Assembly (NCBI GenBank): GCA_038087875.1
Contig: CM075991.1
Span: forward strand, 5,208,001-5,272,000
DNA: 64,000 nt
Reading direction: 5' to 3'
Source: Malacoraja senta
Taxonomy: Eukaryota
Below, piece by piece: positions 470 to 61,788 of the stretch. The notes below the pieces were generated by a model. It was not told where the DNA came from, made no database searches, and saw only the letters and a program-made list of their open reading frames with translations. The translations under genes were made by a program, and so were the position numbers. Position 1 is the stretch's first letter, and each line of letters opens with the position of its first letter.

Positions 470-850
470 TGGGGTCCCGCTTGGGCAGCTTACAACCCAG
501 CAGTATGAATATTGAATTCTCTAACTTCAAGTAACCCTTGCTTTCCCTCTCTCTCTGTCCCTCCCCCACCCCAGTGCTCTGATTAGTTTCACTGTCCTGC
601 TGATTCATTTTGCTGTTTGTCTGCCTCGTTGTCACCTTCCCCTCAGCCAATTATGAAACATTCTACATTTCCTTGATCATCGTCTGCTTTGCTCTGACAT
701 TTTCACACCTTACCATTCCATATCTCTAGTCTCCCTCTCCCCTGACTCTCAGTCTGAAGAAGGGTCTCAACCCGAAACGTCACCCATTACTTCTCTCCAG
801 AGATGCTGCCTGTCCCGCTGAGTTACTCCAGCTTTTTGTGTCTATATTCG
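470..850 (+). mobile_element. Penelope-like element 3' end (GIY-YIG tail + 3'UTR with hammerhead motif at 754-781)
   Basis: RLGSLQPSSMNIEFSNFK* followed by CTGAAGA-A-GGGTCTCAACCC-GAAACGTC. Confidence 0.75.
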
Positions 851-5630: not shown

Positions 5631-7125
5631 TTTAAGAAGGAACTGCAGATGCTGGAAAGGCAAAGGTAGACAAAAGTGCTGGAGAAACTCAGTGGGTGAG
5701 GCAGCATCTATTGGCGAAGGAAATAGGCAACATTTCGGGTTGAGACCCTTCTTCAGACTGATGTGAGGGTGGGGCGGGAAGAAGAAAGGAAGAGGTGGAG
5801 ACAGTGGGCTGAGGGAGAGCTGAGAAGGGGAGGAGAAAGCAGGGACTACCTGAAATTAGAGAAGTCAATGTTCATACCGCTGGGGTGTAAACTGCCCAAG
5901 CGAAATATGAGGTGCTGCTCCTCTGATTTACGGTGGGACTCACTCTGGCCATGGAGAAGGCCCAGGACAGAAAGGTCGGATTCGGAATGGGAGAGGAAGT
6001 TAAAGTGCTGAGCCCCCTGGAGATCAGGTTGGTTATTGCGAACCGAGCGGAAATGTTGGGCGAAGCGATCGCCAAGCCTACGCTTGGTCTCACCGAAGTT
6101 GAGCGGCTGATACCTAGAGCAGCGGATGCGATAGATTAGGTTAGAGGAGATGCAGGTGAACCTCTGCCGCACCTGGAAAGTCTGCTTGGGTCCTTGAATG
6201 GAGTCAAGGGGGGAGGTAAAGCGACAAGTGTAGCATTTCCTGCGGTTGCAAGGGAAAGTGCCCGGGGAGAGGGGGTGGTTCGGGTGGGAAGGGACGAATT
6301 GACCAGGGAGTTAGGGGGGAGCGGTCTCTGCGGAAAGCAGACGGGGGAGGAGATGGGAAGATGTGGCCAGTGGTGGGATCCCGTTGGAGGTGTGAAAATG
6401 TCGGAGGATTATTTGTTGTATGTGACGGCTGGTAGTGTGGAAGGTGAGCACAAGGGGGACTCTGCCCTTGTTACGAGTGGGGGGGATGGGGAGTGAGCAG
6501 AGTTTAGGGGCTACAGAAGAGACCCTGGTGGGGTGGAAGACTGCAACCTTCACGGGCAATCAACCCGGCGTGCACAATCAAATAAGATCAAATAGAACAA
6601 AGGTACACAAAAATGCTGGAGAAACTCAGCGGGTGCAGCAGCATCTATGGAGCGAAGGAAATAGGTAACGTTTCGGGCCGAAACCCTTCTTCAGACTGAT
6701 AGGGGGTGGGGAGAAGAAAGGAAAAAAGGAAAAGGCGGAGGAGGAGCCCGAGGGCTGGGGGAGGGGAGGAGACAACCAGATGGCTGATGAAGGGGAGGGG
6801 ACAGCCAGGGCTAGCAGAATTGGGAGAATTCAACGTTCAGGCCACCAGGATGTAGACTGCCCAAGCGGAATATGAGGTGCATTTCCTCCAATTTACGGTG
6901 TTGCTCGCTGTGGCCATGGAGGAGACCCAGGACAGACTGATGTGAGGGTGGGGCATCTTCTTCCCGCCCCACCCTCACATCAGTCTGAAGAAGATACGGA
7001 ATGGGAGGGGGAGTTGAAGTGCTGAGCCACCGCGAGTTCAGATAGAACAAGTTGTCCTACAACTTTAGGCTGTGCTCGCCATACGCAAGAAGAGGAAGAA
7101 GAAGAAACCCTTGTGAGAACCTCAT
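5631..7125 (-). mobile_element. Penelope-like (Neptune-type) retroelement 3' half, interrupted by nested insertions
   Basis: RVPLVLTFH RT C-terminus, CNRRKCYTC linker, degenerate GIY-YIG (NLIYRIRC..FGETKRRL..HFN..GMNIDF), 3'UTR with hammerhead motif ~5730-5757. Confidence 0.85.
6530..7099 (+). mobile_element. (AAG)n-tailed short retroelement with deleted HDV-like ribozyme; contains a Penelope fragment at 6601-7037
   Basis: Homologous to 27693-27836. Flanked by AGAAGAGACCCTGGT (6515-6529) and AGAAGAAACCCTTGT (7100-7114). Confidence 0.8.
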
Positions 7126-9775: not shown

Positions 9776-9830
9776 TTCTGTTCAGAGATCAAGGAGACTG
9801 CAAAGGTTTTTCATGCTTTATTTTATTCAG

Positions 9831-9955
9831 TAAAACTAAACGGTGGAAGACATGTGCAAGGAATTCTACGTGGGTTCGATCCCTTCATGAATCTTGTCGT
9901 GGATGAATCCTTGGAAATGGCACAGGGTGGCCAACAGAATACCATTGGCATGGTG
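9831..9955 (+). CDS. SNRPG: SNRPG coding exon 3
   Basis: TTTTATTCAG acceptor, (L)[41 protein letters not shown] (Sm1 motif), GTAAGT donor; 125 nt. Confidence 0.97.
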
Positions 9956-11523
9956 GTAAGTTACTTAAGTTTACTACAGTGAATAAGCGAGTTTGATATT
10001 TCAAATGCGCATGCCCAGGCCATGTATGGACCAGCGTATTCATTTCAATGAGATTTAAAAATGTATCCGTCAAATATGTCAGCAGTAGGCCACAGCACAG
10101 GCTGCACAAATCCACAATTGTATCTATTTAAATTATTGACACAATACAGCACCAGCCTTGAAAATAATAAATTCTTTAACTTTTTGAATATCTCATAATT
10201 GCAGAATAATGAACTGAACTAGAACTGGGACCGTGTAAGTAGTGTGTGAACAGCAGAACAAGAAAGTTGACAGAATTTTTTATTTTGAATGATCTTTGAC
10301 AAATCCCATGATTCCTTGCATATATCGAAATACCAAACTCGCTTATTAGTTTGACTCTTATCAAAATGCGTCGCAACCAAATTCGTGAACACACTAAGTA
10401 CTGGAGGAGCTCAGTGGGTCAGGCAGCTCCTATGGAGGAAATGGACGGACAACGTTCCAGGTTGGTGCCCTTCTGATCAGTCTGAAGAAGGGTCCTGACC
10501 GGAATTGTTGCCTGCCCATTCCCTCCACCAGCACTTTGTGTTTTGCTCAAAGATTCTAGCATCTGCAGTTTCTTGTGCCTGTAGTTATCTAAAGGTCAGT
10601 CCTGACCTACCATCTACCTCATTGGAGACTCAGACTTTGATCGGGCTTTACAGAAATTTATCTTGCACCAAACGTTGTTCCCTTTATCCTGTGTCAGTAC
10701 ACTGTGAATGGCTTGATTGTAATCATGTATAGCCTTTCCTCTGACTGGATAGTATGTAACAAAAAAGCTTACCGAGTCGTGAAAGGCCTGGAGACTGACT
10801 TTTCTCACTTCCAGCTCTTCACCTCCACCCCTGACATTCAGTCTGCAGAGGGATCAACACCTTTGCTTGGACCTACCTGATCTCCCAGTTGCTAAACACT
10901 TTAATTCGCCTTCCCATTCCCACAATGACCTTTCTGTCCTAGGTCTCCTCCATTGTCAGGAGGAGGTTAAACGCAAATTGGAGGAACGGCATCTCATATT
11001 TCACTTGTGCAGCTTACAGCCCAGTGGTATGAATATTATAGGACCCGAGGCCATAGCCTCAGAATAAAAGGATGTACCTTTAAAAAGGAGATGAGGTGGA
11101 ATTTCTTTAGTCAGGGGGTCGTGAATCTGGAATTCATTACCACAGATGGCTGTGGAAGCCATCAATTGATATTTCGATGGCAGAGAATGACATATTCTTG
11201 ATTAGTAAAGGTGTTAGGGGTTAGAAGGCAGGAGAATGGGGTTGTGAGGATGACATATCTGCCATCTGATGCCAGCCCTGATTTGTCCTGTTTTATTTTT
11301 CGTCTCCATGTTTTTGTCCCCACTCTCCACTTCAATCAGTCTGAAGAAGTGTCCAACCAAAACATTTCGCCTATCCATGTTCTCCAACAATGCTGCCTGA
11401 CCCTGTTGAGTTAAGGCAGCACTTTGTGCCTATCTTTGATATAAACCAGCATCTGCAGTTCCTTTTTACTACTATTTAGGTCCCCTTTCAGTGAGGTTTT
11501 TAACTTTGCATTCTCTTCACCAG

Positions 11524-12596: not shown

Positions 12597-14863
12597 CACG
12601 TGCTCCCTCGCGATTTGTCTCGCATAAGCGATATACATTCAGTAGAGACCGTACTTTGAATTTTGATCTTTTCCCGGGCTAGCGATATGCGGTACGATAC
12701 TCTCGTGATGCTGTGTAACGGCAGCGAGCCACAGCTCCCAGTCAGCTATGCGTGTAAACAACTGAGTGTACTGTGTTGCCAGCGTTTTGTGGATACAGTG
12801 TACAGTATTGTGTTTTTTGTGTTTTTGCATCCCATCATGTCTACAAAACATCCATCTGTGTCTCCTCCTTGTGAGAAGAAGAAGAAGAAGAAGAAGAGGA
12901 AGGCAATTACTCTTGAGATGAAACTCCAGATAATTGGCCAGCGTGAAGGCAGCAAGCCAATAATGGCCATCGCACGTGAGTTAGGACTTTCGCAATCGAC
13001 CATCTCGACCATCTTAAAGGATAAGAAGCGAATCAGTGATGCAGTGAAATCGTCAGCATCGGTTAAATCCACGATCATCACAAAGAAAAGAGCTGGACCG
13101 ATTGAAGATATGGAGCGATTGCTTGCCATGTGGATGGAAGACCAGATACAGAAGCACATACCGCTTAGCCTATTGCCGATCCAGGCCAAGGCAAGAAGTC
13201 TTTTCAAAAGGCTAAAAGAGCGCGCTGATGATGCTACGTATACACAAGTGTTTACAGCAAGTCCAGGATGGTTCCAACGCTTCAAGAGGCGTCATAATTT
13301 TCATAACGTGAAGGTCAGGGGTGAGGCGGCAAGTGCCGATACTGACGGTGCCGAAGCTTTTAAGGAAGAGCTCCATAGGATAATTGTGGATGAGAAATAT
13401 TTGCCAGAACAAATATTCAATGTCGATGATCCGGGCTTGTTCTGGAAGCGTATGCTGGAGCGTACATATATTGATCAAGAGTCCAAGACAATGCCAGGAT
13501 TCAAGGCATGCAAAGACCGTGTAACGCTGCTTTTGGGTGGAAATGTTGCAGGGTTCAAATTAAAGCCTTTACTAATCCACCACTCGGAGAACCCTAGAGC
13601 ATTGAGGAATGTGAGCAAACATACACTTCCCGTTTATTATCGCCATAACAAGAAAGCCGGGGTGACATTCGCATTGTTTGAAGACTGGTTTCTAAACTGT
13701 TTTATTCAGCAGGCAAGAGAATATTGTAGGCAAAACAACATCCCATTCAAAATTCTTCTCATCTTCGATATTGCTCCAGGCAATCCGCAGCATATTGGAA
13801 ACATGCATCCCGATGTAAAGGTTGTGTGTTTGCCGCCGAACACAGCCGCACTCATTCAACCAATGGACCAAGGTGCAATAGCTGCGTTCAAAGCCTATTA
13901 TTTACGCCAAACGTTTGCGCAGGCTGTTGAAGCGACTGAATCTGGCCGAACACTCCAAGAGTTTTGGAAAGATTTTAACATTCTCAATGCTATCCAGAAC
14001 ATCGCTGCAGCATGGGAAGAAGTCACACAGCAATGCATGAATGGCGTTTGGAAGAAAGTAATGAAGACATATGTGAACACATTCAAAGGCTTTAACAAAG
14101 ATTCTGCTGTTGATAACATAGTAAGTAACAAGATATTAGTGCTTGGGAAACAGCTAGAATTGGACATTGATGAAGAAGATATTCATGAGCTTGTTGGCAC
14201 TGAGGCTGAAGACCATTCCAATCAGGAGCCTATCGAACTGGAGGAAGAAAGAAGTAAAGAGGCAGAGGAAGAAGTTATACCCGTGGCACCGAAAACTTTC
14301 ACAACAAAGAAACTGGCGGAGGCGTTTGCCACTATCAGCAGTGGCGTACGGATGTTGGAAGAAATGGACATCAATTACGAGAGATTTGCAAAAACTAACA
14401 GACAGCTACATGATGCTCTTGCCTGCTATAGGGAAATATATAATGAAAAGAAGAGACAAATTGTACAGTCAAAACTTGATATCTTCCTGAAGAACACTGC
14501 CTGCTAAACAATCAACATGTGTCGATGCCCCTCTGCCTTCTCCCACTATTCTCGAGACTTATCAGAAGAGAGAGAATGTTCGGTAGGTTAGGTGTATTAA
14601 ACATGTTTCTATCTTTTTTTCGTCTCGTTAAATACTGTACTGTATTATGTTTGCCCTTAAAACTCACCTGATAAATAATAAAGCATTTTCCTGGCATGAC
14701 TGGCAAGTCTATAAACAGACTTTAATGTCCCGTTCAGAGCATCCCAAAATGCATTAAAGAAGTGTAATCGGTATTTTAAGAAACTGCACATATTAAATGC
14801 GATGTTTTCGATTTACGATAGGTTTATTGGAACATAACCCCATCGTAAGTTGAGGAGCAGCTG
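12597..14863 (+). mobile_element. Tigger/pogo DNA transposon, near full length (Tigger5/MER47-like ends)
   Basis: Left end TA|CACGTGCTCCCTCG (degenerate TIR). Right end reverse complement CAGCTGCTCCTCAACTTACGATGGGGTTA, followed by AA rather than TA. Encloses a transposase ORF. Confidence 0.85.
12837..14507 (+). CDS. Tigger transposase (TIGD1-like): CENP-B HTH-psq + HTH + DDE_1, 556 aa, DD32D
   Basis: Likely ATG at 12837 (MSTKH). KRKAITLEMK..IARELGLSQSTISTI HTH; ASPGWFQRFKRR; catalytic Asp in FNVDD, LIFDIA and QPMDQG (32 aa between D2 and D3). No stops or frameshifts. Confidence 0.9.
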   Translation: MSTKHPSVSPPCEKKKKKKKRKAITLEMKLQIIGQREGSKPIMAIARELGLSQSTISTILKDKKRISDAVKSSASVKSTIITKKRAGPIEDMERLLAMWMEDQIQKHIPLSLLPIQAKARSLFKRLKERADDATYTQVFTASPGWFQRFKRRHNFHNVKVRGEAASADTDGAEAFKEELHRIIVDEKYLPEQIFNVDDPGLFWKRMLERTYIDQESKTMPGFKACKDRVTLLLGGNVAGFKLKPLLIHHSENPRALRNVSKHTLPVYYRHNKKAGVTFALFEDWFLNCFIQQAREYCRQNNIPFKILLIFDIAPGNPQHIGNMHPDVKVVCLPPNTAALIQPMDQGAIAAFKAYYLRQTFAQAVEATESGRTLQEFWKDFNILNAIQNIAAAWEEVTQQCMNGVWKKVMKTYVNTFKGFNKDSAVDNIVSNKILVLGKQLELDIDEEDIHELVGTEAEDHSNQEPIELEEERSKEAEEEVIPVAPKTFTTKKLAEAFATISSGVRMLEEMDINYERFAKTNRQLHDALACYREIYNEKKRQIVQSKLDIFLKNTAC

Positions 14864-22025: not shown

Positions 22026-22775
22026 TGTTTAAGAAGGAACAGCAGATGCTGGAAAATCGATGGTAGACTAAAATCCTGGAGAAACTCAGCGGGTGAGGCA
22101 GCATCTATGGAGCGAAGGAAATAGGCAACGTTTCGGGCCGAAACCCTTCTTCAGACTGATGTGAGGGTGGCGAGGGTGGGCGGGAAGAAAAAAGGAAGAG
22201 GAGGAGCCAGTGGGCTGAGGGAGAGCTGGGAAGGGAAGAGACAGTAAGGACTACCTGAAATTGGAGAAGTCAATGTTCATACCGCGGGGGTGCAAACTGC
22301 CCAAGCAAAATATGAGGTACTGCTCCTCCAATTTACGGTGGTCCTCACTCTGGCCATGGAGGAGGCCGAGGACAAAAAGGTCGGATTCGGAATGGGAGGG
22401 GGAGTTGAAGTGATGAGCCACCGGGAGATCAGGTTGGTTAATGCGGACCGAGCGGGGGTGTTCGGCGAAGCGATCGCCAAGCCTACGCTTGGTCTCACCG
22501 ATGTAGAGCAGCTGACACCTAGAGCAGCGGATGCAATAGATGAGGTTGGAGGAGGTGCAGGTGAACCTCTGCCGCACCTGGAAAGACTGCTTGGGTCCTT
22601 GAATGGAGTCAAGGGGGGAGGTAAAGCGACAAGTGTAGCATTTCCTGCGGTTGCAAGGGAAAGTGCCAGGAGAGGGGGTGGTTCGGGTGGGAAGGGACGA
22701 ATAGACCAGGGAGTTGCGGAAAGCAGACGGGAGGACATGGGAAGATGTGGCCGGTGGTGGGGTCACGTTGGATAG
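22026..22775 (-). mobile_element. Penelope-like (Neptune-type) element 3' fragment with nearly intact GIY-YIG endonuclease
   Basis: CNRRKCYTC..NLIYCIRCSRCQLLYIGETKRRLGDRFAEH..HFN..GMNIDFSNFR*; 3'UTR with intact hammerhead core. Confidence 0.9.
22127..22154 (-). ncRNA. Minimal type I hammerhead ribozyme motif (Penelope pLTR type)
   Basis: CUGAAGA-A-[GGGU UUCG GCCC]-GAAA-CG-UU, about 100 nt after the GIY-YIG stop. Helix I is weak. Confidence 0.65.
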
Positions 22776-24577
22776 TAGCTCAGGAGTCCTGAGCTACTAT
22801 CTACCTCTGCGGAGACCCTCAGACTATCTTTGATCGAACGTTACTGGACTTTATCTTGCACTAAACTTTATGCACATTATTCCCCGTATATGTGGTAGCT
22901 CAATTGTATTGTCTTGTCATGTATTGTCTTTCCGCTGACTGGTCAGCACGCTACAAAAGCTTTTCAATGTCCCTTGGTGCACGTGACAATAAACTAAACT
23001 CGAATTCAATATCTAACAATTACCTTCTTTAAACTAAATAATGACATTAGTATTCCAACTAATCTTTGATACATCGCACACACTTTAACTGAGATTTTTA
23101 ACTGCCAGGTTTAGTAAAGGCAGAACCACTTTAAGGATATTAATAGCAGCCATTGGATCACATCAACAATAGATTGGAGTATATCAAATAATTTACTCCT
23201 CTTGTTACTGCTTGAGGTTTCCTAATTTCACAGTGGCAGATGACTCATGTGTGATTAAGTCAAATTGTGCATTTATTGTGCACGGACTCTTAAATCTTTT
23301 CAAAGATGCAGATCTGAATGCCATGCATTTGAAATGAGACGTTTTCCACCTGACAGCAGCCCTCATCCATTCCATCAACTTCAACATAAGGGCTTTGTTC
23401 TCATCCCAAATGAGTTAACATGCCACTCACTTTGCCAATTAGGAGCTGGTGCAGGTTTCGCATAATGCTTTATTTTATTGGCGAGGTCACAGTTCAAGCT
23501 GGTCCATGAACTATCACTACGGGGTCGGATCACCGGTTACTTCTGTTACCCTGGTGATTTCCAACTCATAAGCTAGGGGAGACGCAAAATGCTGGAGTAA
23601 CTCAGCGGGTCAGGCAGCATCTCTGGAGAAAAGGAATAGGTGACGTTTCGGGCTGAGACCCTTCTTCAGACTGAGTGTCAGGGGAGAGGAAGGAGAGGTA
23701 TAAAATGGTTCTGAACAAATCGGAGCAGGCACCGATGGCCACATTGTTGGCTGTGGAAGAGGTGCTAACCAAGGGATACAAACAGTGAAACTAGTAGGAT
23801 GACTAGGGTGGAGGAGGGACGGAGAGAGAGGGATTGCAAGAGTTACTTGAAATTAGAGAAATCAATATTCTTACCGCTGCCCAAGTAAAATATGAGGTTG
23901 TTCCTCCAATTTGCATGTGGTCTCACTCTGACAGTGAAGGAGGACAGTTGGAATGCTTGGCAACCGGGAGATCCTGTAGAAAAGCTAGAGTACTGACTGA
24001 TTCAACTCTACGACATTGTGGACATTGGACTTTGTCTATGGAACTGATGCCCTACAATGCTGAACTGTATCCTGCACTCTGTATTCTCCTCATTGCTCTA
24101 TCTATGGTACTTGGATTTAACTTGCATATCAAAGCTTCTCACTGCACCTCAGTGCACGTGACAATAATACATCTAAACCTAAACCTAATTCTCATGGTGC
24201 TTGAGGAACCCAGCGGGTCAGGCAGCATCTCTGGAGAAAAAGGATGGGTTGAGACCCTTCAGGACCGACCTAAAATGTCACCCATCATTTTTCTCTAGAA
24301 ATGCTGCCTGACCTGCTGGGTTACTCTAGCACTTTGTGTCTATCTTTGGTATAAACCAGCATCTGCAATTCTTTCTAATTCTCATGGGATTTGAACTTGT
24401 AGCCTACCACAGTGACTTTACAATCAAGTATCTTTCTCTAATATTGAGGGCTTTCCTCTAATGTTCTGCTTTCTGGGGAAAAATATAGCAATCAATAGTT
24501 TAGTTTAGTTTATTGTCATGTCGACCAACGTACTGTGAAAAGCTTTTGTTGCGTGCTAACCAGTCAGTGCAAAGACA

Positions 24578-24765
24578 AGGTAGACAAAAATGCTGGAGAA
24601 ACTCAGCGGGTGAGGCAGCATCTATGGAGCGAAGGAAATAGGCAACGTTTTGGGCCGAAACGTTGCCTATTTCCTTCGCTCCATAGATGTTGCCTCACCC
24701 GTTGAGTTTCTCCAGCATTTTTGTCTACCTTCGATTTTCCAGCATCTGCAGTTCCTTCATAAACA
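24578..24765. mobile_element. Fold-back Penelope-terminus element, 188 bp
   Basis: Near-perfect ~153-bp palindrome plus 35-bp tail; TSD AGTG(C/G)AAAGACA at 24566 and 24766. Confidence 0.85.
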
Positions 24766-25759
24766 AGTGGAAAGACAATACATGATTGCAAATCGAGCCA
24801 TCCACAGTGTACATGATAAGGGAATAACTTGAATAACGTTTAGTCTGAGGGTCTCCGATGAGGTAGATAATAGCTCATGACTGCTCTCTAGTTGTTGGTA
24901 GGATGGTTCAGTTGCCTGATAACAGCTGGGAAGAAATTGCCCCTGAACCTGGAGGTGTGCATTTTCAAACTGACACTTTATTATCGACACTTTGAGGTGC
25001 ATGTTTTTGGCTTAAGTTAAATGTCTTACTTGGGCAGGAGGACAGGCTTGGGGACTTGTTTGTACACTTTGAAACACAGCGAAAAAATCAATCATGTACA
25101 ACCATCAAATTAATTAAAACTTTAACACTTTGCGTCATGTCCCCAAGCCGAGAGATCTATAAGCAACATCATCTTCAATGCATAAACACAAAGACAGTTT
25201 ATTAAGGTTTTGGTGTACTCTTTTATTGCCTTGATGAGAGAAGCTGATAATCAAATCAACAGACAGAAAATTTGATTCCATTTGAGTCAACTATTTGGAA
25301 ATTCAGAAGAACCCTAAGACCTTGCCTTTAAACCTGCTGCCTGCTGCTGGTTGCACTGCCTAAAATGAGACTCGTTGGCAGCTTGCTTCTTTTGGCTTAG
25401 TTGACTTGGAGAGCTGCCAAACTCAGCATGACTGGAGTTATTAGATGCAGAAGAAACTTGATGAGCGATGATTAGAAAGAGAGGAGTGATGTTCTGAGTC
25501 AGCATCTTTGCAGTGCATCTGACCGATGAGGTGCAAGTGACTTGCGTTAGTTAGTTGTGAAGTGAGGTTAGTTGGTCTCAACTCACTTCTGTGTGCCTGG
25601 TGCACTTGCGCAATATTGATCCCAGCAGTGAATGGCAGGAACAACATTGATGAGAGAGGCCATTTGATATGCAGTTTTCAAATTGCAAAAATGTCATAGA
25701 GACCAAGTCTCAGATCCTCTAACTAAGAGATAAAAATTTGGAATAGAAAAAAAGTAAAA

Positions 25760-38484: not shown

Positions 38485-39415
38485 GGGTTACACCTTAACT
38501 GGAGGGGGGCCAATGTTCTGGCAGGCAAGTTTGCTGGTGCTACACGTGTGAGTTTAAACTAAATAGCGGGGGTGGGGGGAGGGGGAGGGGTTGGAAAAGT
38601 TACAAAAGACTCCCAAATGAATGGGAAGGAAAGTTTGAGAAGGGATAAGAGAGTAAGGTCAGAGATAGTGACCGGTGTGAGAGGGGAGGTGAATACCGAA
38701 GTTAAAGTGTTGTATATGAATGCGTAAAGTTTAAGAAATAAAATGGATGAGCTCGAGGCTCAGTTAGAAATTGGTAAGTATGATGTTGTAGGAATTACAG
38801 AGACATGGCTGCCAGAGGACCAGGGCTGGGAACTGAATATTCAGGGGTATACATCCTATCAAAAAGACAGACAGGTGGGCAGAGGGGGTGGGGTAGCTCT
38901 GTTAGTAAGGAATGAAATTTAGTGTTAAAGAAGGAACTGCAGATGCTGGAAAATCGAAGGTACACAAAAATGCTGGAGAAACTCAGCGGGTGCAGCAGCA
39001 TCTATGGAGCGAAGGAAATAGGCAACGTTTCGGGCCCGAAACGTTGCCTATTTCCTTCGCTCCATAGATGCTGCTGCACCCGCTGAGTTTCTCCAGCATT
39101 TTTGTGTACCTATGAAATTTAGTCCCTTGCGAGGGGTGACAATAGAATCAGGAGATGTAGAGTCAGTATGGATAGAACTGAGGAATTATAAGGGTAAAAA
39201 GACCCTAATGGGAGTTATCTACAGGCCCCCAAACAGTAGCCTGGATATAGGTGCAAGTTGAACCAAGAGTTAAAATTGGCATGTAGCAAAGTTAATGGTT
39301 ATGGGAGATTTCAACATGCAGGTAGACTGGGAAAATCAGGTTGGTACTGGACCCCAAGAAAGGGAGTTTGTGGAATGCCTCCGAGATGGATTCTCAGAGC
39401 AGCTTGTACTGGAAC
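38485..39415 (+). mobile_element. CR1 LINE ORF1 end / APE endonuclease region, degenerate
   Basis: LYMNA.SLRNK, GITETW, GGGVALLV, GVIYRPP, VMGDFN motifs. Confidence 0.85.
38924..39111. mobile_element. Fold-back Penelope-terminus element, 188 bp, perfect 154-bp palindrome
   Basis: Arms 38958-39034 and 39035-39111 are exact reverse complements; 34-bp tail; perfect 12-bp TSD ATGAAATTTAGT. Confidence 0.92.
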
Positions 39416-43468: not shown

Positions 43469-45880
43469 ATTATAGCCCATCTTCAGTTTAAACCAGCATC
43501 TGCAGTTCCTTCCCAAAGATTAAAGGCGATGCTTAATTGGAAACAGCATGCAAAGCACTGCCTCAGCGTATGGGTAGTGAGCACTAATGATCTTGGCAGC
43601 TAGATGCAGCTCAGTGTAAGGGGGAAGGATAACTCAGACATCTGAAGAGCCAGGGTGGTTTCTTTGATGTTATCAATCTTGCACCGTTCTTGGCAGTGCA
43701 ATGTAACCTTGGAAGGAAGACTTTGTGAATGACACCATCCCACTATTATTAATGAACTATGATGCCACTGTACCCTTCCCATGAATGTTTGGTTGTAGCA
43801 AGAACCAGGAGAGTCCTATGGGCAGCATTACTTGACTTTGAAAATCTGCCATTTGTAAGCATATGTGATGCTCTCTGACCTGAGATTAAAGCAATATCCC
43901 GGTTTTTCTGGAGGCAGAAAAACAGTTTTTTTGTTGTTCTTTTCTCACTCCAAAATGCTACATTATTAATAACAATATTCCATTCAAATGTCCATGTCCC
44001 ACCTGTCCATATTCACCAGAGATGCTGCCTGGCCCGCTTACTCCAGCACTTTGTGTGGGTTTTTTTGGTCAACCAGCATCTGCAGTTCCTCAATGTCCTC
44101 AATCCTCTCTGTAATTGTTAGCATGTGTCCATGGAAAGTGTGATCTCCTGGCAAACAAGGACATAGCATATGTCTGGAGAACGTGGATGGGTGACGTTTC
44201 GGGATGGGACTCTTCTTCAGTCTGAACCGGTGGGGTTACTCCAGCACTTCGTGCACAGGACGAGGGTGATGTTGAAGACACATTTCCCCCGTCTCTGGTG
44301 ACCCATTGGACACACTGCTGTGGATCCCCAGATGAGATAGAAGGAAATCTCTGGCTCAGATGACTGCCAAGGTGGAGGATGGGCGTTTGGGCCACACCTG
44401 CAACGCGGACACCATCAACAAGACCTCCCTGAGCCTGATGACCACGATCGTGCTCGCCTCAAAAGGACACAGTGGTGGAGTAATTCCGCTGTTTCATTTC
44501 CTTTAGCCCCCAATAAAGGGGAGCTTCTGGAGGAACTCGGCAGCTCCGGCAGCATCTGTGGAGGAAAATCGATGGCCGAGACCCTTCATCTTGACTGAGG
44601 AAACACTGACTCACCATTCCCCGCACAGATGCTGTCTAACTTGCAGAGTTTCTCCAGCATCTCTCCTTGTGTTGCAGATTCCAGCATCTGCAGTCTCTAG
44701 TGCCTCTGTATTGCTTCTATTCAATAATGGTGCATTTTGATAATCCTTTGTCTCTAACAATTTTGTTGCAGCCATCCAGGATCCTGACAGCCCAAGCTCA
44801 GTGCTGTGTGGGCTCATATCGGGTGAAAATCCATTGGAAGTATCGTTTAGAAATTGGTGCTACAGTCATGCTGGCGCAAGCAATGATTCTTTGGCACGGG
44901 GCATAACGCCATGTGCTTATAAAATGTTTTTCCCTGAAGCCCACCCTTAACAGGTGGATTTGTCATGTCACTGGCTTAGTTCTGCTTGGGTTGTAGTGTA
45001 AACATTAGCATTTATAAATTCCCAACTTATAATTCACTGCTTTCACTTTAACAGCACCGCCAGCGAACATGTCACGCTATGCTGGAGCCGTGCGTTTCAA
45101 AAGCATACAATCCACTTGAAACCAAGTTGGCAAATAAAAAAGTCAAAATGGTGTGCGCTTTGATTTGTTTGTAGCTGAAAGAAATGCTATTGGCATTCCA
45201 ATGGAAGCACCTCACAAAATATCCGGTCACCGCAAACAGCCCTGTTATCAACACTGCATTTGCAAAAGTCTGCATATAATGACAACACTATAACCAGCCA
45301 GAGTTGAGACCATTAGGCAATATTCCTGTCAACCAGCCTTGCTGACAATATTGCTCCAAATGATGAAGATTGATTTTAATGCAGGTAAGTTGCAAGGAAC
45401 TGTCCCAGTAGTTTTCTGGAGAAACGTTGCTCTTGTAATTGAAGCCATTGCTGTGGTCTGACTGCTGCACTCTTTAAATACACGTTGTTTTCTGAGTATG
45501 TGTAGGAAGGAACTTCAGATGACGGTTGAAACTGTAGGCACAAAAAGCTGGAGTAATTCAGCGGTAGACAAAAATGCTGCAGAAACTCAGTGGGTGAGGC
45601 AGCATCTATGGAGCGAAGGAAATAGGCAACGTTTCGGGTTGCAACCCTTCTTTAGTAATTCAGCAGGACAGGCAGCATTTCTGGAGAGAAGAAATGGGTG
45701 ACGTTTCGGGTTGAGACCCTTCTTCAGTCTGAGTTACTCCAGCTTTTTGTGTCGATCTTGTTTTCTGAGTAAACTGGCTGTTTGCATCAGCCCTTTCTCC
45801 ATACTCCCACCTTTGAACTCGCTGGCTTGCGTGCTGTTGCCAGTCAATGCCCTGCTCACTGAAAGACATTTTACCCTTTG

Positions 45881-46561
45881 TCAAATCGCAGTGGCAACTA
45901 TCACCTCAAAAGAGTCAGCACCTTGTCCCACTCTCTCCACAGAATCTCTGGCTTCCAGCTGGACTGAGAGCTGCTGGACAGTCCTCTCCAGGCTGAGGTT
46001 CTGCCGGCGAGTGCGCAGGTAGTTCTGCTGGAGCTGCTTCTGGTATTCAATCACCCGCTCCTTCTCTGCACACCACAGCAGCCGCTCCTTCTGAGAGTCG
46101 AGGGCCAGCGCCTGGTTCCTCTGCTTCTCGTGCTCCAGTTGGGCTTTTAACTTGTCCACTTGTCCCTGCAGGTTCGCTGACCCTTGCTGGCTCTGTCGCA
46201 GGGACAGCGCCGGTTCGGGCCGGCCGTCGCTCTCGCCTCCACAGCTCGCTTCCTTCCAGCTGACCGAGCTGCGTTTCAGGTCGCGGATCCTCTGCTCCTG
46301 CAGGCCGACCTTCTCCCGCAGCAGCTCGGCCGCGTTCCTCATGCGCTGCAGCTCGTTCTCGCACACCTCCAGCTCCCTCGCCTTGGTCTGGACTGCGCCC
46401 TGCAGCTCCTCGACCCGCTGCTCTCGAGAGGACAGCTTCCCCCTCGCCTCCCTCACCTGGTTCCTCAGGGTCAGCACATCGTTGGTCTTGTTGGCCAGCT
46501 CCGTCTGCGAGTCCTTCAGCTGCTGCTTTAGAAGAGAGATCACCCCAGACTTCTGGCAGAC
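45881..46561 (-). CDS. LZTS1: LZTS1-like coding exon 3 (Fez1 coiled coil, PDZ-binding C-terminus)
   Basis: TTTCAG acceptor, VCQKSGVISLLKQQLKDSQ..ELEVCENELQR..EKERVIEYQKQLQQNYL..IVATAI*. Total CDS 1806 nt = 601 aa. Confidence 0.88.
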   Translation of the reverse strand, partial: VCQKSGVISLLKQQLKDSQTELANKTNDVLTLRNQVREARGKLSSREQRVEELQGAVQTKARELEVCENELQRMRNAAELLREKVGLQEQRIRDLKRSSVSWKEASCGGESDGRPEPALSLRQSQQGSANLQGQVDKLKAQLEHEKQRNQALALDSQKERLLWCAEKERVIEYQKQLQQNYLRTRRQNLSLERTVQQLSVQLEARDSVERVGQGADSFEVIVATAI

Positions 46562-47184
46562 CTGAAACAGTAAGGGTCCATAATCTGCAAATGCACACGA
46601 ACATCACTTGCACCACACTGCCCCACAACTGTGTTTTCAAACTAGAGGTGACACCAATCAAAGCTTGATCTGACTAGTAGAAACAAGGAACTGCAGATGC
46701 TGCTGACAAAAATAATAGTTGTGGAGAAACTCAGTGGGTCAGGCAGCATCCGTGGAGAACATGGATAGGTGGAGATCTGACGTTTTATTCTGAAGAAGGG
46801 TACCGACCCGAAACATCACCTATCCATGTTTTTCTGGGATGCTACCTAATCCAATGAGGTGCTCCAACACTTTGGGTCCTTTCTTGATCAAACAAGGCTT
46901 GGCGCCGATCAAACTTTGACCAAAGAGAGATTTTTACAAGAAGATATTTCCTAAGCTTGAGAACTCTCGATCGTTTATCATATTATTTATTATGCATATA
47001 TATTCTGTTGTGCTGCAGCAAGTAAGAATTTCATTGTTCTATCTGGGACATATGACAATAAAACATTCTTGACTATTGAACAGCGGATCTGCAGTGTAGA
47101 GTAACTAAATGAAGTGACGAGCAAGAGGCTGGAACAGGCGTGAGACACAGTCCTTGGAAGAGATTACAAAGACCAGGAGGGGTC

Positions 47185-47790
47185 AAGTCAAGTGAGTTTA
47201 TTATCATGTGTCCCTGATAGGACAATGAAATTCTTGCTTTGCTTCAGCACAACAGAACATAGTAGGCATTGACTACAAGGCATTCTATAAATATATACAC
47301 ACATGAATCAATATACTGATAAAGTACAAATAACAGTATTGGCTAATAAAGTTCAGTGTTATGTCTGAGCCAGGTTTAATAGCCTGATGGCTGTGGGGAA
47401 GTAGCTATTCCTGAACCTGGTTGTTGCAGTCTTCAGGCTCCTGTACCTTCTACCTGAAGGTAGTAGGGAGATGAGTGTGTGTGGCCAGGATGGTGTGGGT
47501 CCTTGATGATACTGCCAGCCTTTTTGAGGCAGCGACTGTGATAGATCCCCTCGATGGAAGGGAGGTCAGAGCCGATGATGGACTGGGCAGTGTTTACTAC
47601 TTTTTGTAGTCTTTTCCTCTCCAGGGCGCTCAAGTTGCCGAACCATGCCACGATGCAACCGGTCAGCATGCTCTCTACTGTGCACCTGTAGAAGTTAGAG
47701 AGAGTCCTCCTTGACAAACCGACTCGCCGTAATCTTCTCAGGAAGTAGAGGCGCTGATGTGCTTTCTTAATAATGGCATCAGTGTTCTCG
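47185..47790 (-). mobile_element. Rex1/Babar LINE 3' end (LZTS1 intron)
   Basis: LSNFYRCTVESMLTGCIVAWFGN..LQKVVNTAQSIIG..IIKDPHHPGH; tail (CTTGA)n. Confidence 0.85.
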
Positions 47791-50162
47791 GGTAAAGTGA
47801 TCTTAAAGAATTGTGTTCATTGTCATGTGGTTTAACGGACCATCTAAACTCTGTGTTTAGACGTCCACTGAGGAATGGACATGTGGGGAACCTGGGGCCG
47901 TGGTCACCGCAACCTCAAAATAATATGGTTTACAATTTATTGCAAATAGTGAAAGGCCTGGATAGAGTAGATGTGGAGAGGATGTTTCCACTAGTGGGAG
48001 AGTCCAGGACCAGAGGCCACAGCCTCAGAATAAAAGGACGTATCTTTAGAAAGATGAGGAGGAATTTCTTTAGTCAGAGGGTGGTAAATCTGTGGAATTC
48101 ATTGCACAGAAGGCTGTGGAGGCCAAATCAATGGATATTTTTTAATGGCATCGATTTTTGACAGATTTTTGATTAATAAGGGGTGTCAGGGCTAATGGGG
48201 AGAAGGCAGGAGAATGGGGTTTAGAGTAAAAGATAGATCAGCCATGATTGAATGGCAGAGTAAACGATAGGGCCAAATGGCCTAATTCTGCTCCTATAAC
48301 TTATGGACTTCTGAACAAAAACTTTATTCCAAATTTAACGGCAGATGAATGAAAGACAGTTTCTCTGCATCATAAACCCGCAAATTAGATTGCAGCCAGC
48401 AGACGACTTTGTGATACATCTTACACGATCTTTAAGTTTTAAAACCCAATAAATGTTTCCAATCGATTCAGGACCACAAATTACATCGAATAAAGTGGTT
48501 TACAACATGTTGCAGCAACCTTTTTAGTTAATGGAAGATGAATGAAACACAATTACTCTACATTGGGAACACTAAATTAGACTGTTTGAAGCAGGTAGAA
48601 CACCTTCTCATCCATCACGCATTAACCTTTTCTATGGTAAGGTTTTATAACCAAATAAACATTTTCAATCGGTTCAGGTTTGGAAGTCCGTTCATGTGGG
48701 AGTAGGGGTAGGGAGCACCATAGTCCTATTCTACTGATTTAAATTATGATACATGGTTCTATGGTCTCTGGTTGGAGAGGGGTTCTATGGATCTGCTGGA
48801 GCTCACAGTTGCAAGCCACTTCAATTCCCCTTTCCATTCCCAAATCATCAGCATCTCTATCCTGGTCCACCTCCACCGCCAGGGAGAGGCCACTCTGGCA
48901 AAGTGGAAACACAACGCCACCTATTCTGCTTGGGTTGCTTACAACCCAACTGTGCGAGTATCAAATTCTCCAACCTCAGGCAACCCACCCCTCCCCTCTC
49001 TCCTCCCCCCTGTGGCACAGCTGCCAGAGACTGACTGACTACATCCTGACTACATGTTCAATCCCTGACTACATATGATGCCTGCATGGAGTTTGTACGT
49101 TCTCCCTGTGACCCGCATGGGTTTTCTCTGGATGCTCCAGTTTCCTCCCACATCCCAAAGACATGCAGGTTTGTAGGTTAATTGGCTACTGTAAATTGTC
49201 CATAATGTGTAGGATAGAACTAGTGTTCGGGTGATCTTATCCCATAACCTCCATCCCATTCCCACTCCCCTTCCACCTACATCTCATCCTCGAGCTTCAC
49301 ATTTGCACCTTTTCTCTCCTTATGACTTTTAGTCTTTCGAGATACAGTGTGGAAACAGGCCCTTTGGTCCACTGAGTCCACTCTGTTAACTGCTCAAATC
49401 CAAAAATACATAATGTCATGGCAAACTGAAGACTTAAATGACCACACAAACAATGAGCTCGGAGTTTGCAAACATATCAGTCTTAGGAAGGGTCCTGACC
49501 CGATATGTAGCCTGTTTAAGACTCGCGGACTACCTTTAATCTAATTTTACTTTGCACTAAATGTTATTCCCTTTATCCTGCATCTACACACTGTGGACAG
49601 CTTGATTGTAATCACATATGGTCTTTCCACTGACTGGAAAGCATGCAACAAATAAATCTTTTCCCTGTACCTCGCTACACGTGACAATAAACTAAGCGAA
49701 GATGCTGGTAATAGGTGACGTTTCGGGTCAAGACCCTCCTTCAGACGGAAAGTCAGGGGAGTGGGAAACGAGCAATATGAAAAGGTACAGCAAGCAAATA
49801 AATGAAGGATATGCAAAAATAACATAAAGTGTTAATAGGCTTTGAAGATTAATAGGTTTGAAGAAGAGTCTTGACCTGAAACATCACCTATTCCACTTCT
49901 CCAGAGATGCTGCCTGACCCACTGAGTTACTCCAGCATTTTTTGTCTTTCTTCGCTTTATATCAGCATCTGCAGTTCCTTCCTCAACTAAGATGCTGCCA
50001 GAACTGCTCAGTTCCTCCAGCACTTCATGTCTTTTCTTGTAAACCAGCATCTGCTGTTCCTTGTGTCCCATCCTATTCCCCTTGGTAATCTACGCTCCCT
50101 GGGGCACGGGCCAGAACATTAATTATATTATTTTCTCTCTGCATAAACGGCGGTGTTCCTAC

Positions 50163-50942
50163 CTCCCATTTAATTTCCTCGAGCGTTGGGCCGAGTTCCG
50201 TTTGTTCTCGTTCGTACGTTTTGCATTTGGCTTTGAGGCTGTTGCACTGCTGGAGAAGTTGGGCAAAGTTGTCCCTCAGTTGCTGCTTCTCTTGTTGGAG
50301 CTGGCTGACTTGGATCTGGAGGAGCTGGCATTCTCCGTGCTCCGTGTGAGAGGAGTGGGTAGTGTTAACGCCATCCCTCCGCTCCGGGCTGCCTGGCCCC
50401 TGCCCGCAGTGTCTCTCCTTCCCATTGTCCAGGGACTCCTGACCTCCTCTCCCTGCCGGTGGATCCACCACTGGATCCCGAGCCGCAGATCTGCTGGCGG
50501 AAGGGGTTGAGTGGAGGCGTGAGCTGCAGTGGTTGGAGCTCAGGTCTTTGTTGCCAGGGCAGTGCCCACCTTCAGAGGTGGACACGATGCCCCCATTTCT
50601 CAAGATGCCTCCAACGGAACCAATGTGTTGGGCTGAACCTCCAAACCTTTTACGAAGGGTGGTGGCGGCACCAGTGGGCTCCGGCCCCCGGCTGCATCCG
50701 GTGCTGTGTGTCGGGAGGCTGGACATGGAATTCCTACCCGAGTCCGACAGTGTACCCGAGCAGCTGGTCTGCTTCTGCTCTCGTCCCTGCTGTTTCCCTG
50801 CAGGGTTTCCCGGATTCGGGACGCTTCCCTGAGACGTAAGCTTCGCGTCCATCTGGTTCCCCAAAGGACCGTTGAGATTGGCGCCATTTCTAGGCACCAC
50901 AGCCTTAACTGCTGTCGGCCTGACAACACTCCTTTTGCTGCC
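50163..50942 (-). CDS. LZTS1: LZTS1-like coding exon 2
   Basis: CTGCAG acceptor, GSKRSVVRPTAVKAVVPR..LSDSGRNSMSSLPTHST..LGPTLEEIKWE, GTAGGA donor; 780 nt, phase 0. Confidence 0.88.
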
Positions 50943-52554
50943 CTGCAGAGAAACAATAGTGGTATGAACATTGAATTCTCTCAATTCATGCATCTTGTGT
51001 GTTATGACTGTTGACAGATCAATTTCCCTCCTGGGATAAATAAAGTTATATCGTATCATATCATTTTAAGTATCTTCTACCAACAATCCTCCCTCCCCCC
51101 CACCTAATCTCCTTCCTTCACACCTAGCTGGTTAACCAGGCTGAAGAAGGGTTTCAACCCAAAACGTTGCCTATTTCCTTCGCCCCATAGATGCTGCCTC
51201 ACGCGCTGAGTTTCTCCAGCATTTTTGTCTAACCAGTTCTATAGTGCACATTAGAAATATAGATACATAGAAAATAGGTGCAGGATTAGGCCATTCGGCC
51301 CTTCGAGCCTGCACCGCCATTCAATATGATCATGGCTGATCATCCAACTCAGTATCCTGTACCTGCCTTCTCTCCATACCCCCTGATCCCCTTAGCCACA
51401 AGGGCCACATCTAACTCCCTCTTAAATATAGCCAATGAACTGGCCTCAACTACCTTCTGTGGCAGAGATTGTATCCCTCTTGAGGCCACACCATACCAAG
51501 ACAACAATTGGCTTACAGAGCACCTCCCTGCTTGAGGTCATTTGTTAACTGTTAACTGTTCCTGGGCTTTTCTCGCCTCCAGCTCTTCACCCTCTGCCCC
51601 CGCCCCCCCCCCCCCCCCCACCCCTCCCAATCCGAGGAAGGATCCCGACCTGAAATGTCACATATATCCTTTTCCTCCAGAGATGCTGACTGACCCACTG
51701 AGTTACTCCAACATACAGTGTCTATCAGAGATATAATTGGACTTGGTTAATCGGAGTTGTTTAGAGATACAGCATGCAACAGGCCCTTTAGCCCACCGAG
51801 TCCATACTAACCCATTCACATTAGTTCTGTGTTGTCCCACTTCCTCATCTGTTCCCTGCACACTAAGGGCAATTTACAGAGGTCAATTAACCTGCAAACC
51901 ACACGTCTTTGGGATGTGGGAGGAAACCGGGGCACCCAGTGGAAACCCACAGTCACAGAGAGAACGTGCAAACTCCACACAGAGGTCAAGATGGAACTTG
52001 ATCACTCTCTGGTGCTCGGAGGCAGCACCTCCACTGTTGCACCACTGTGCCGCCTCTAATATTACATGTTTTCAACTTTTCCATCTCTATAATCAGCCTG
52101 TTTAGTTTCCGTATCTTGGAGATCCAATACTTCAGAAGACAGGGAGATTCCATCTGTTCTCTTCATTGACAGAGTAACAGATCCCACACCACTATTTTAA
52201 TCACAGGATCTTTTGCATCCTCAGCATCTTTAGTTGATAATCACCCGTTAAATTGGCAGATTAACTACTTTGGTTGCTGCTTTGGAATCCTTCTCTGCAC
52301 ACAATTGGTTGCTGGCATTTCCCCCACATCACAGCATTGATTAAACTTTAACAAAGAATATAGAACAGCATTGGCTTGAAGTGCTTTGGTTGGGAAATAT
52401 TTCGTTCTGGTGAATGTTTGCCTCATTCCACAGTATTGCCAGTATATCTTAGCTTTTATTTCAGATTTGTGGAAGGCACAAAGGTACACAAAAATGCTGG
52501 AGAAACTCAGCGGGTGCAGCAGCGAAGGAAATAGGCAACGTTTCGGGCCGAAAC

Positions 52555-53343: not shown

Positions 53344-53480
53344 GAAACCCTTCTTCAGACTCATAGAACTTGTAGAAGGCACAGCTCGTCTTCCTACGAG
53401 TTTAGTCTAGAGATACAGCATGGAGACAGGTCCTTCATTCCACTGAGTCTATGCAGACCGTCGATCACCTATGCACACTG

Positions 53481-53772
53481 ATTTAGTTTAGTTTAGTTCA
53501 GAGATACAGCGCGGAAACAGGCCCTGCGGCCCACCGGGTCCGCGCCGACCAGCAATCCCCGCACATTAACACTGCCCTACACACATCAGGGACAATTTTT
53601 ACATTTACCAAGCCAATTTACCTACATTCCTGCACGTCTTTGAGTGTGGGAGGAAACCGAAGATCTCGGAGAAAACCCACGCAGGTCACAGGGAGAACGT
53701 CGAGATCGAACCCAGGTCTCCGGTGCTGCAAGTGCTGTAAGGCAGCAACTCTACCGCTGCGCCACTGTGCCA
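53481..53772 (-). mobile_element. HE1-like V-SINE
   Basis: (TTTAG)n tail and tRNA-like head. Confidence 0.8.
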
Positions 53773-59349: not shown

Positions 59350-61788
59350 CTCGAACTATCTTTAATAGGACTTTACCTTGCACTAAATGTTATTCCCTTT
59401 ATCCTATATCCGTACACTGTGGACGGTTCGATTGGAATCACGTATAGTCTTTCCGCTGACTGGATAGCACACAACAAAAAAAGCTTTTCACTTTTCACGT
59501 GACAATAAACTAAACTGATCTATACAAGGTCTCTATGCAGGGCAGTCACTGAAACAGCGGGAGCCACTAATTTCTATGGGCCACGGACACATTGAGAGGG
59601 TTTGGAAAGCAGAACTGAAGCTAAAGAGTTAATCCTGATTACGTACAGGCAGTTACTTGTCAGCAGTATGCACAGGTGTGCTGTCAGAGAGATTGCCTTT
59701 CCAACATTGCACTGATCTCCAATAAACATTGCTGTTCACACGAAGAAGAAGAAGACTGATGTGAGAGTGGGGTGGTGGGGGGGGGGGGGGCGGGAAGAAG
59801 AAAGGAAGAGGCGGAGACAGTGGGCTGAGGGAGAGCTGGGAAGGAGAGGAGAAAGCAGGGACTACCAGAAATTGTCATTTTTGACTACCTTTGATTTTCC
59901 AGCATCTGCAGTTCCTTCTTAAACATACATAAAATACAGGGGATCTTTTTTAACACAAAGGGTGGTGAGTACCTGGAACACGCTGCCAGAAGTGGTGGTT
60001 GAGGCAGATACAATAGTGGCATTTAAGAGACATTTGGATAGGCAAGGTGCCAGGGACCCGGGTTCGAATATGACTACGGGTGCTGTATGAATGGAGTGTG
60101 TACGTTCTCCCTGTGACCGCATGGGTTTTCTCCGGGTGCTCTGGTTTCCTCCCACACACTACAGGCTTGTCGGTTAATTGGCTTCGGTAAAAATTGTAAA
60201 TTGACCCTAAAGTGTGTAGGATAGTGTACGGGGTGATCACTGGTCGGCGCGGATTCGGTGGGCCGAAGGTTCTGTTCTTGTTTGGTGCTGTGCTATCTTC
60301 TATAGATAGAAAGAATGAAGTCAAACTCAAGTACAATAGGTGGAGCAAAGGGGAAGCTCAGAGTCTTCTTTAAAAAGTGTAAGCCCTGCCGACTCCTGGG
60401 AATGATCACACTCAATGGGATGTGGGGAATGCCGTTTGGGATGGCTCCTTCGTGGGGAACTGATGGACGGCCACTGTGAACAGCAGAAATATCAGGCACC
60501 CTCCCAAATGACCCAACTACCCTCTCCATCACCTCCCGCTCTCTCTCTGCAGGTTCCCCACTTCCCGCATCAGCTACCTCACAGGCAAGTCATCCTCAAT
60601 CGCAGGCAGACAAAAGTGCTGGAGAAACACAGCGGGTGCAGCAGCATCTATGGAGCGAAGGAAATAGGCAACGTTTCGAGCCGAAACCCTTCTTCAGGCG
60701 TTCCCTTCAGAGATAGGATTACTCTGCGCACTTCATTGCAATTTAAAATCCTCCCGCCTACAGCTCCTGTTCTCCCACAGTCAGCGGCTTGTGAGCCTGT
60801 TAAACAGCATTAAGTACCAGTTAATAGATCCTCACAAATCCGCCAACCTGTTCTTTAGAAAGGATTGCCTTTGACGAGGAGAGGTATCTTGAACAAATGG
60901 ACCTGGAATTGCAATAAAGCTGTCCAACCGTTAGACTTTAAAGATACAGGGCGGAAACAGGCCCTTCGGCCCACTTATTATTGATTATTAATAACCCATT
61001 ATCTGTTATCTGCACTTTATCAGTTTATTTATTCATGTGTGTTATATTTATATTATGGTATATGGACACACTGATCTGTTTTGTAGTCAATGCCTACTAT
61101 GTTCTGTGTGCTGAAGCAAAGCAAGAATTTCATTGTCCTATCAGGGACACATGACAATAAACTCACTTGACTTGACTTATTCCACGTCAACCAGCAATCA
61201 CCCTGTACACTAGCGCTATCCTACTTATTAGGGACAATTCACAATTTTAACAAAGCCAATTAACCTACAAACCTGTGTGTCTTTGGAGTGTGGGAGGAAA
61301 CCAGAGCACCCAGAGAAAACCCAAGCGGTCACAGGGAGTACGTACATACTTCATACCCGTGGTCAGGATCGAACCCGGGTCTCTGGCACTGTAAGGCAGC
61401 AGCTCTACTGCTGCGCCACTGTGCCACCCACCTGCGCCACAGTGCCACATCACCCTCAGGCTTAACGCAGGAGGGAGAGGATAGATGAATGCAGAAGAAT
61501 ACCATCCTTCGAGATTCACAGTAAATACTTTAACGGCTAGATAGTCACCTAAGTTTTCCCATATCTCCTTACAAATGTAGAAGGCCATTCAGCCCTTTGT
61601 GTCTATGCTGGCTCTCAGAGCAATCCCATTCCCCACATACTTCACTGTAACCTGAGAGTGGGTCAAGAATGTTTTATTGTCATATGTACCAAATCTTCTT
61701 ACTTACAGCAGCACTACAGGTTAACAAATACTGTGATCAATAGATAATATATTAAACAAACAGCGGGAAATGTTCAACAAATAAAAAA

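Follow-up and report, generated by a model that had tools for sequence, protein, structure and literature searches.

A minimal hammerhead motif in the pseudo-LTR of a prolific Penelope-like element of the skate Malacoraja senta, with a few tandem junctions at its predicted cut site

The window, which is the whole stretch of 64,000 nucleotides of Malacoraja senta DNA analysed here, carries on its minus strand the truncated end of a retrotransposon reading frame followed by a small ribozyme motif. By its sequence, this motif belongs to the minimal type-I hammerheads already known from pseudo-LTRs of Penelope-like elements (PLEs). Positions are numbered from hammerhead C3 = 0 (window 22154, minus strand), which places the predicted cut between +27 and +28. 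The features of this copy, followed by other copies in the window, are:

22251..22770, minus strand: 5'-truncated ORF end, with the zinc-finger linker and GIY-YIG endonuclease of a PLE
22155..22250, minus strand: pyrimidine-rich spacer from the ORF stop to the core, ending in TCAGT (22159-22155)
22127..22154, minus strand: minimal hammerhead core recognised from sequence, C3 at 22154, with an extra A after A9, stem II (22146-22143 with 22138-22135), the ACGU palindrome (22131-22128) and H17 at 22127
22125..22156, minus strand: helix I of 2 bp only (22155-22156 with 22126-22125; U-G and G-C), the third position being mismatched
between 22127 and 22126, minus strand: predicted cut, +28 from C3 = 0
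22062..22126, minus strand: conserved 3' block of the pseudo-LTR, reaching the first common 3' end (+88 to +99)
22026..22061, minus strand: optional PLE tail of ~36 bp, reaching the second 3' end (+128 to +130)
754..781, plus strand: intact copy, CUCR-loop subfamily
6667..6694, minus strand: intact copy, young UUCG-loop subfamily
23642..23669, minus strand: intact copy
45700..45727, minus strand: intact core, helix I down to 1 bp, native upstream sequence absent
60670..60697, minus strand: solo copy that passes the structural descriptor via G-U pairs

The layout at 22154 agrees with the min-HHR consensus in the accessible part of PMC4209133 (Fig S3), and the core of PLE minimal hammerheads (CUGANGA ... 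GAAA ... UH, with stem II closed by G10.1-C11.1) is present. The motif is not the canonical Rfam type-I hammerhead, which has a helix I of ~6 bp and a loop-loop contact; at Rfam gathering thresholds the window gave 0 hits. The GIY-YIG domain in 22251..22770 was recognised by Pfam with an E value of 0.0011, below the curated cut-off. By inspection, the conserved block after the cut site (22062-22105, minus strand) can base-pair with either of two similar stretches, one near +75 to +82 and the other in the tail (22026-22061), forming a candidate RT recognition structure. Where the truncated element joins its 5' flank (~22771-22804) there is a near-perfect palindrome of ~33 bp, apparently derived from flanking repeat DNA.

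Three other features were noted in the window. A 615-aa open frame at 12660-14507 (plus strand) with CENP-B_N, HTH_Tnp_Tc5 and DDE_1 appears to be an uninterrupted pogo/Tigger-type transposase. An LSM-domain exon is found at ~9776-9982 (plus strand), presumably of a protein resembling Sm protein G. Exons of a likely LZTS-family gene (Fez1 domain) occupy 45881-55083 (minus strand); ten family matches fall within this span, 7 antisense and 3 sense, too few for a test of strand bias.

A preliminary description of this DNA had named five intact copies of the motif. All five (C3 at 754+, 6694-, 22154-, 23669- and 45727-) possess a perfect core, four stem-II pairs and ACGU; the copy at 45727 lacks the first pair of helix I as well as an upstream GIY-YIG. 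At each of 17 positions listed as degenerate there is a family copy (17/17), and the one at 60697- also passes the structural descriptor, via G-U pairs. Six window copies pass the descriptor. The figure of more than 20 copies in 64 kb was true but too low: a family profile built from 30 genomic copies, seeded with intact ones, found 55 family matches in the window, of which 35 span the core wholly or for the greater part; the reversed window, used as control, gave 0. The distance of 100-250 nt from the stop to the core fits copies that keep a GIY-YIG remnant (~90-220 nt), but most copies are without one; remnants are present at 7 places in the window.

Of the structural details in the preliminary description, the extra base and the palindromic helix III were borne out. 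The extra base after A9 is an unpaired A in 188/199 aligned copies; helix III is the palindromic ACGU without loop III in every subfamily majority (4-8 clusters); and helix I is 2 bp, U-A or U-G plus G-C. Stem II had been described as varying while keeping its pairing, but the changes are confined to the loop and one U-A/U-G wobble, with no two-sided compensatory change between subfamilies. Besides these copies, palindromic insertions are seen at 24576-24766, 38954-39114, 57195-57343 and other places in the window, with centres often at stem II or at a TCAG-T-CTGA micro-palindrome; they are consistent with fold-back priming of cDNA.

A longer relative of the truncated frame is found at locus L107. 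This 916-aa frame contains RVT_1, DKG, YIDD, a C-X4-C-X2-C linker and GIY-YIG (Pfam scores are below curated cut-offs, with the motifs present). The linker, at residue 783, fits the Neptune CX2-5CxxC between RT and EN. According to the accessible text of Craig et al. 2021 (PMC8557442), the CX2-5CxxC linker marks Neptune or Nematis, and vertebrates have only Neptune and Poseidon in the portion available of Li et al. 2026 (bioRxiv 10.64898/2026.07.22.740005). Because of these two points, the parent, which by its sequence is an RT + GIY-YIG Penelope-like retrotransposon, likely belongs to the Neptune clade. Its protein has 886 homologues at an E value of 1e-20 or better, and the named ones of highest identity (62-71%) are from Chiloscyllium, Rhincodon, Hypanus and Mobula. 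Hallmarks of EN+ PLEs are present: partial tandems, an inverted 5' partner, a 30-40-bp tail and target-site duplications (TSDs). The family is young, the ORF start being near 100% identical in 40/40 among the matches listed.

At ORF-bearing loci the hammerhead lies 100-120 nt after the stop. The tandem at L108 reads ORF end, hammerhead, next ORF's ATG (about +160), and the motif therefore sits in the pseudo-LTR, on the 3' side of one ORF and the 5' side of the following one. Its position just 5' of the next ORF's start had been missed by the preliminary description, as had the accumulation of copy starts at the motif's 5' edge and the tandem junctions at the cut site (both below).

Employing a tight pattern, we found 56,528 exact matches in the 1.94-Gb assembly (28,487 + 28,041 on the two strands), or 29 per Mb; the reversed pattern gave 0 matches in the whole assembly. 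In 80 evenly spaced 10-kb samples (800 kb) there were 287 family matches and 21 intact motifs, which extrapolate to ~0.7 million family fragments and ~51,000 intact motifs. The truncated GIY-YIG frame beside the 22154 copy has ~99,000 first-look candidates in the genome. The window is richer than average (55 per 64 kb versus 3.6 per 10 kb). According to the preliminary description, this genome would at such a density rank among the most hammerhead-rich of vertebrates. The density per Mb exceeds the published vertebrate figures compared, being ~6.5-fold that of axolotl (29 versus 4.5 per Mb, with different descriptors), but the total is below that of axolotl, for which the accessible sources give 126,247 motifs in a genome of 28.21 Gb. 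Xenopus has ~9,000 and coelacanth ~4,000 in the available part of PMC4209133; the published counts rest on other descriptors and, so far as they are accessible, include no skate or ray. Since counting methods differ, it is plausible that this is the densest vertebrate genome for hammerheads per Mb. In the literature within reach of our search, which largely leaves out subscription journals, we found no report on skate or ray hammerheads or cut-site junctions.

Two repeats of another kind contain family sequence. Unplaced contigs (L061-L064, L068-L070 and L073-L075) represent a multi-kb repeat with a PLE copy of ~2 kb, found on many small contigs; the hammerhead in it is mutated in the core, and the family sequence apparently ends near the cut site. 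Long frames of this macrosatellite, which hold one mutated copy, were left out of the counts. In addition, a tandem array at 3.87-4.06 Mb (contig C1 of G000) has units of ~2-2.5 kb, each with degenerate hammerhead copies on both strands.

The preliminary description had proposed that a functional core should be conserved in excess of its flank across subfamilies. With 440 unique full-span copies divided into 4, 6 or 8 clusters (mean divergence 3-18%), 0 of the 15 constrained positions varied, versus 22, 24 and 27 of the 80 other positions (Fisher p 0.013, 0.008 and 0.004); on this count the preliminary description stands. Division into 10 clusters left a single constrained position, in a CpG, variable (p 0.034). 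Within the motif, variation is limited to loop II, the 11.4 wobble, the 1.1 wobble and C/U at N17. The comparison gives moderate support to selection on the core across subfamilies. It is only moderate because there is no two-sided covariation, the downstream blocks are as invariant as the core, several of the variable columns come from the ragged 3' end, and intact copies served as the seed of the profile. Once a copy is inserted, its core decays: G12, which lies in a CpG, was kept in 74% and changed in 26% of 201 copies.

Lacking a loop, helix III cannot form in a monomer. A dimer can form it by pairing its two ACGU palindromes, and the double-hammerhead fold has a predicted energy of -4.7 to -7.1 kcal/mol, while the best dimer reaches -14 to -25. 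The 22154 copy belongs to the UUCG-loop subfamily, where the probability of stem II is 0.05 or less because of competing hairpins. Energy models leave out the tertiary contacts of the core. A helix I of 2 bp is at the edge of the published range of 2-6 bp, and only three non-Drosophila rows in the accessible Fig S3 of PMC4209133 are that short. Few copies have a partner in cis for dimer formation, since only 11 of 119 close pairs are same-strand with both cores; 66 are head-to-head inversions. From such folds, weak or assisted ribozyme activity would be expected. This expectation agrees with PMC4209133, where the available text reports no monomer activity and low dimer activity in vitro, and with PMC11167929, where, in the accessible part, cleavage occurred only with protein and uncleaved RNA was the main substrate.

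The ends of inserted copies were then compared with the predicted cut. Among 279 copies from the samples and the window, found by the downstream part alone, the 3' ends lie at +88 to +99 or at +128 to +130. Both may well be start sites of reverse transcription, by analogy with the sites described in the accessible part of PMC11167929. The 5' ends of these copies start at -5 to +1 in 93, further upstream in 70 and at +2 to +48 in 112, including 8 at +27 to +29. In the better-referenced A group (n = 82), the corresponding numbers are 22, 26 and 32, with 1 at +27 to +29. Starts are thus common at the first bases of the ribozyme (93/279) and few at the cut site (8/279), and templates were therefore mostly uncleaved; a pile-up at the cleavage site is absent or slight among ordinary copies. 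Exact TSDs of 8-17 bp were found in 33 of 340 candidates (8/1015 in a swap control). The end marked by the TSD is at -7 to +2 in 28/33 (one pair being a duplicate) and at +28 in 0/33. All 100 copies among the matches listed that were anchored 3' of the cut site run through it, as judged by eye; ~40 of them belong to one tandem array. Likewise, 16 of 20 ORF-start copies run through the upstream hammerhead, and among 30 young copies the long native tract is kept in 14 and missing in 16. As far as can be read from these ends, insertions are mostly 5'-truncated ends of ~95 or ~130 bp made from uncleaved RNA, and the high density of motifs would thus reflect the mass production of such ends, followed by decay.

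Transcription likely starts at -4/-3. A cap-G before solo copies was not supported (by eye G 33, A 46 and T 21 of 100; by script G 11/30). We rejected the possibility that solo copies are retrocopies spliced to host exons at the tract-CAG: the flank resumes after the insert in 23 of the 62 solo copies whose flank matched other loci, and the TSDs abut the element. A stop of reverse transcription set by length was also rejected, because tailed and tail-less copies start at one place. Contigs of four other runs (four organisms, four studies) have loose ends at 22156-22158 in 21, 41, 6 and 315 records and are uninformative on RNA ends.

Tandem units offered a second record of template ends. An ORF-start search gave 347 matches, some of them grouped in dispersed arrays that have a period of 138-384 nt and hold as many as 13 matches each. 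The arrays start mid-unit and end at +92-95, +106 or +129-132; those of 10-13 units end at the two PLE 3' sites. Twelve inserts, either arrays or copies of two or three passes, were examined for TSDs: 9 have a candidate (11-16 bp), and the three without one include both +28 arrays tested. A complete hammerhead is present per tandem unit in some arrays (L347, L349, L351, L352 and L354), not in the window copies or the +28 arrays. Units are identical in L353 (10/10) and L354 (12/12), which would fit an origin from a circle, later expansion or assembly smoothing.

Junctions between units were collected from the first 100 of the 347 matches plus 20 partly overlapping ones (106 overlapping strand-loci), giving 36 rows, 35 of them distinct. 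At -23 or beyond it on the upstream side there are 19, a group that contains some internal rearrangements and one junction at the edge of the reference; 8 are at -4/-3, 3 at -1 to +5 and 5 in +6 to +85. Within the last range, 4/5 fall at +27 to +29 (L300, L350, L353 and L395) and one at +41 (binomial p ~1e-5, for a cut site defined beforehand and a junction class noticed during the work, at 4 loci of one young subfamily). Among flank-type 5' ends in the same range, 1/20 is at the cut site, and that one is the third pass of L395 itself (Fisher p 0.002). Three of the four cut-site junctions were placed at +27 or +29 and are taken as +28 on account of microhomology or of a variant in the subfamily. 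The four have at most 1 nt of flush microhomology; 3/4 are clean joins, and in L353 there is a 4-nt match that is one base out of register. Genome-wide junction patterns gave 150 matches for +26, 274 for +28 and 155 for +32; the raw 1.8-fold excess at +28 is weak support, because the first base of the +28 pattern is degenerate and because small deletions and inversions match the pattern as well.

At the -4/-3 junctions, an untemplated G directly precedes the start in 5/8 (p 0.027), several junctions follow A-runs at +272 to +283, and one insert, L348, contains two different junctions, both of the -4 class. These may be jumps from the capped 5' end to the oligo(A) 3' end of short linear RNAs, while the clean joins at +28 are as would be expected of a ligated or uncapped end. 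Indirectly, then, the +28 junctions suggest that the motif sometimes cuts in vivo. Junction starts cluster a second time at -170 to -186, within the GIY-YIG end (L319, L384, L386, L387 and L391), which possibly marks another transcription start region.

The reading that we prefer, with a probability of about 0.7 and on sequence grounds, is that of a weak ribozyme, dependent on a dimer or on protein, which sits on the end of a prolific PLE and cuts a minority of the element's RNAs. Reverse transcription would start internally, ~93 or ~129 nt downstream of C3. The RNAs copied would mostly be uncleaved, many of them short capped transcripts from -4/-3, and would yield solo insertions of ~95-130 bp. 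At the RNA 5' end the enzyme would sometimes jump to a 3' end, or go round a ligated circle, and so produce tandem units; in a minority of these the RNA 5' end would be the hammerhead product. Inserted copies would then decay and be mostly inert.

Alternatively, the motif may no longer cut and may be kept as a promoter or protein-binding part of the pseudo-LTR, the +28 junctions resulting from RT pausing or DNA-level duplication. This we consider rather unlikely. Such a view accommodates the short helix I with its competing hairpin, the equal conservation of the flanking blocks and the mostly uncleaved templates, and it gains from the lack of reads at the cut site in anole (in the part of PMC11167929 available) and from the 8/9 Xenopus dimers that stayed uncleaved in the accessible text of Li et al. 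2026 (bioRxiv 10.64898/2026.07.22.740005). However, variation occurs only where a hammerhead tolerates it (loop II, the wobbles at 11.4 and 1.1, and N17), the competing hairpin predicted in the A-at-+28 variant ends at +31 rather than +28, and the +28 junctions are nearly free of microhomology, 3/4 being clean.

It is very unlikely that the ribozyme is an efficient one acting in normal processing, whereby unit-length RNA is cut and circularised and rolling-circle reverse transcription restores the site, so that copies look uncleaved. This model, put forward in PMC4209133 as far as its available text goes, would explain why full-length copies mostly continue into a tandem partner (16/20) and why arrays of 10-13 units end at two 3' sites. 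But it predicts many short copies starting at +28, which amount to ~1-3%; most array junctions are off +28 (31/35); and two different -4 junctions in one insert point to jumps on linear RNA. Least credible of all is that the ~95-bp solo copies propagate on their own, without full elements, as a SINE-like or retrozyme family, or that they are a regulatory ribozyme domesticated by the host: their estimated number (~0.7 million fragments from 287 in 800 kb) and their TSDs would suit it, but ORF-bearing copies have the same subfamily variants and 3' ends, the 5' ends differ between individual solo copies, CpG decay affects the core throughout, and the head-to-head inversions (66/119 close pairs) would mask the motif.

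Returning to a ribozyme that cuts a minority of its RNAs, the motif itself is ordinary for its class and nothing points to a host function; the junction record is the new part. Taken further, and at what we regard as even odds, the genome would be a fossil record of PLE RNA ends, in which tandem jumps or circles mark the capped start, the oligo(A) ends and the hammerhead cut, and thus cleavage in vivo, with retrozyme-like arrays arising from single insertion events in the densest vertebrate genome per Mb. If true, this would be evidence of cleavage in vivo by the minimal hammerhead of a metazoan PLE. With the reconstituted PLE, no RNA ends at the cut site are described in the accessible part of PMC11167929, and the junction record makes in vivo cleavage testable by computation. 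Since the family is young and huge, junctions across the assembly could measure how often templates were cleaved; the record could also tell rolling-circle copying from template jumping as the origin of retrozyme-like arrays.

Compared with known systems, the hammerhead is closest to the min-HHRs that Cervera and de la Pena (2014, PMC4209133) described in metazoan PLEs. Both have CUGANGAH, a G...C stem II, GAAAN-palindrome-NUH, mostly solo copies, inverted pairs and the extra base, and the nearest rows in the part available are those of Acropora digitifera Neptune and Culex. That part contains no cartilaginous fish rows and describes neither a 5'-edge pile-up nor cut-site junctions; helix I here is at the short end (2 bp), and 56,528 motifs are far above the numbers for Xenopus and coelacanth. 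As in the Neptune EN+ PLEs of PMC8557442, so far as its accessible text shows them, there are an RT, a CX2-5CxxC linker and, at the C-terminus, GIY-YIG, with partial tandems, an inverted 5'-truncated partner and a 30-40-bp tail; the element here differs in long Pro/Ala-rich repeats near the N-terminus, and Nematis shares the linker. With the anole Poseidon PAc (Frangieh et al. 2024, PMC11167929, available part) it shares two internal reverse-transcription starts that bracket the tail and a main template of uncleaved RNA. In PAc, however, the ORF starts inside the hammerhead and no RNA ends are reported at the cut site, whereas here the ATG is ~160 nt downstream of C3 and DNA junctions fall on the cut site.

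In the accessible portions of PMC7229834 (Cervera and de la Pena 2020) and bioRxiv 10.64898/2026.07.22.740005, non-LTR retrozymes are head-to-tail units derived from a pseudo-LTR, mostly with one hammerhead each, as are the arrays here with their units of 138-384 nt, and Li et al. 2026 in the latter describe PLE-derived retrozyme arrays, also in one chondrichthyan. Compared with those retrozymes, each array here has unit boundaries of its own and includes the first codons of the ORF; the arrays terminate at the 3' sites of the PLE, frequently with TSDs, and units starting at +28 lack the core. The window copies are not arrays of the non-LTR retrozyme kind; some of the arrays elsewhere in this genome resemble them at the level of DNA.
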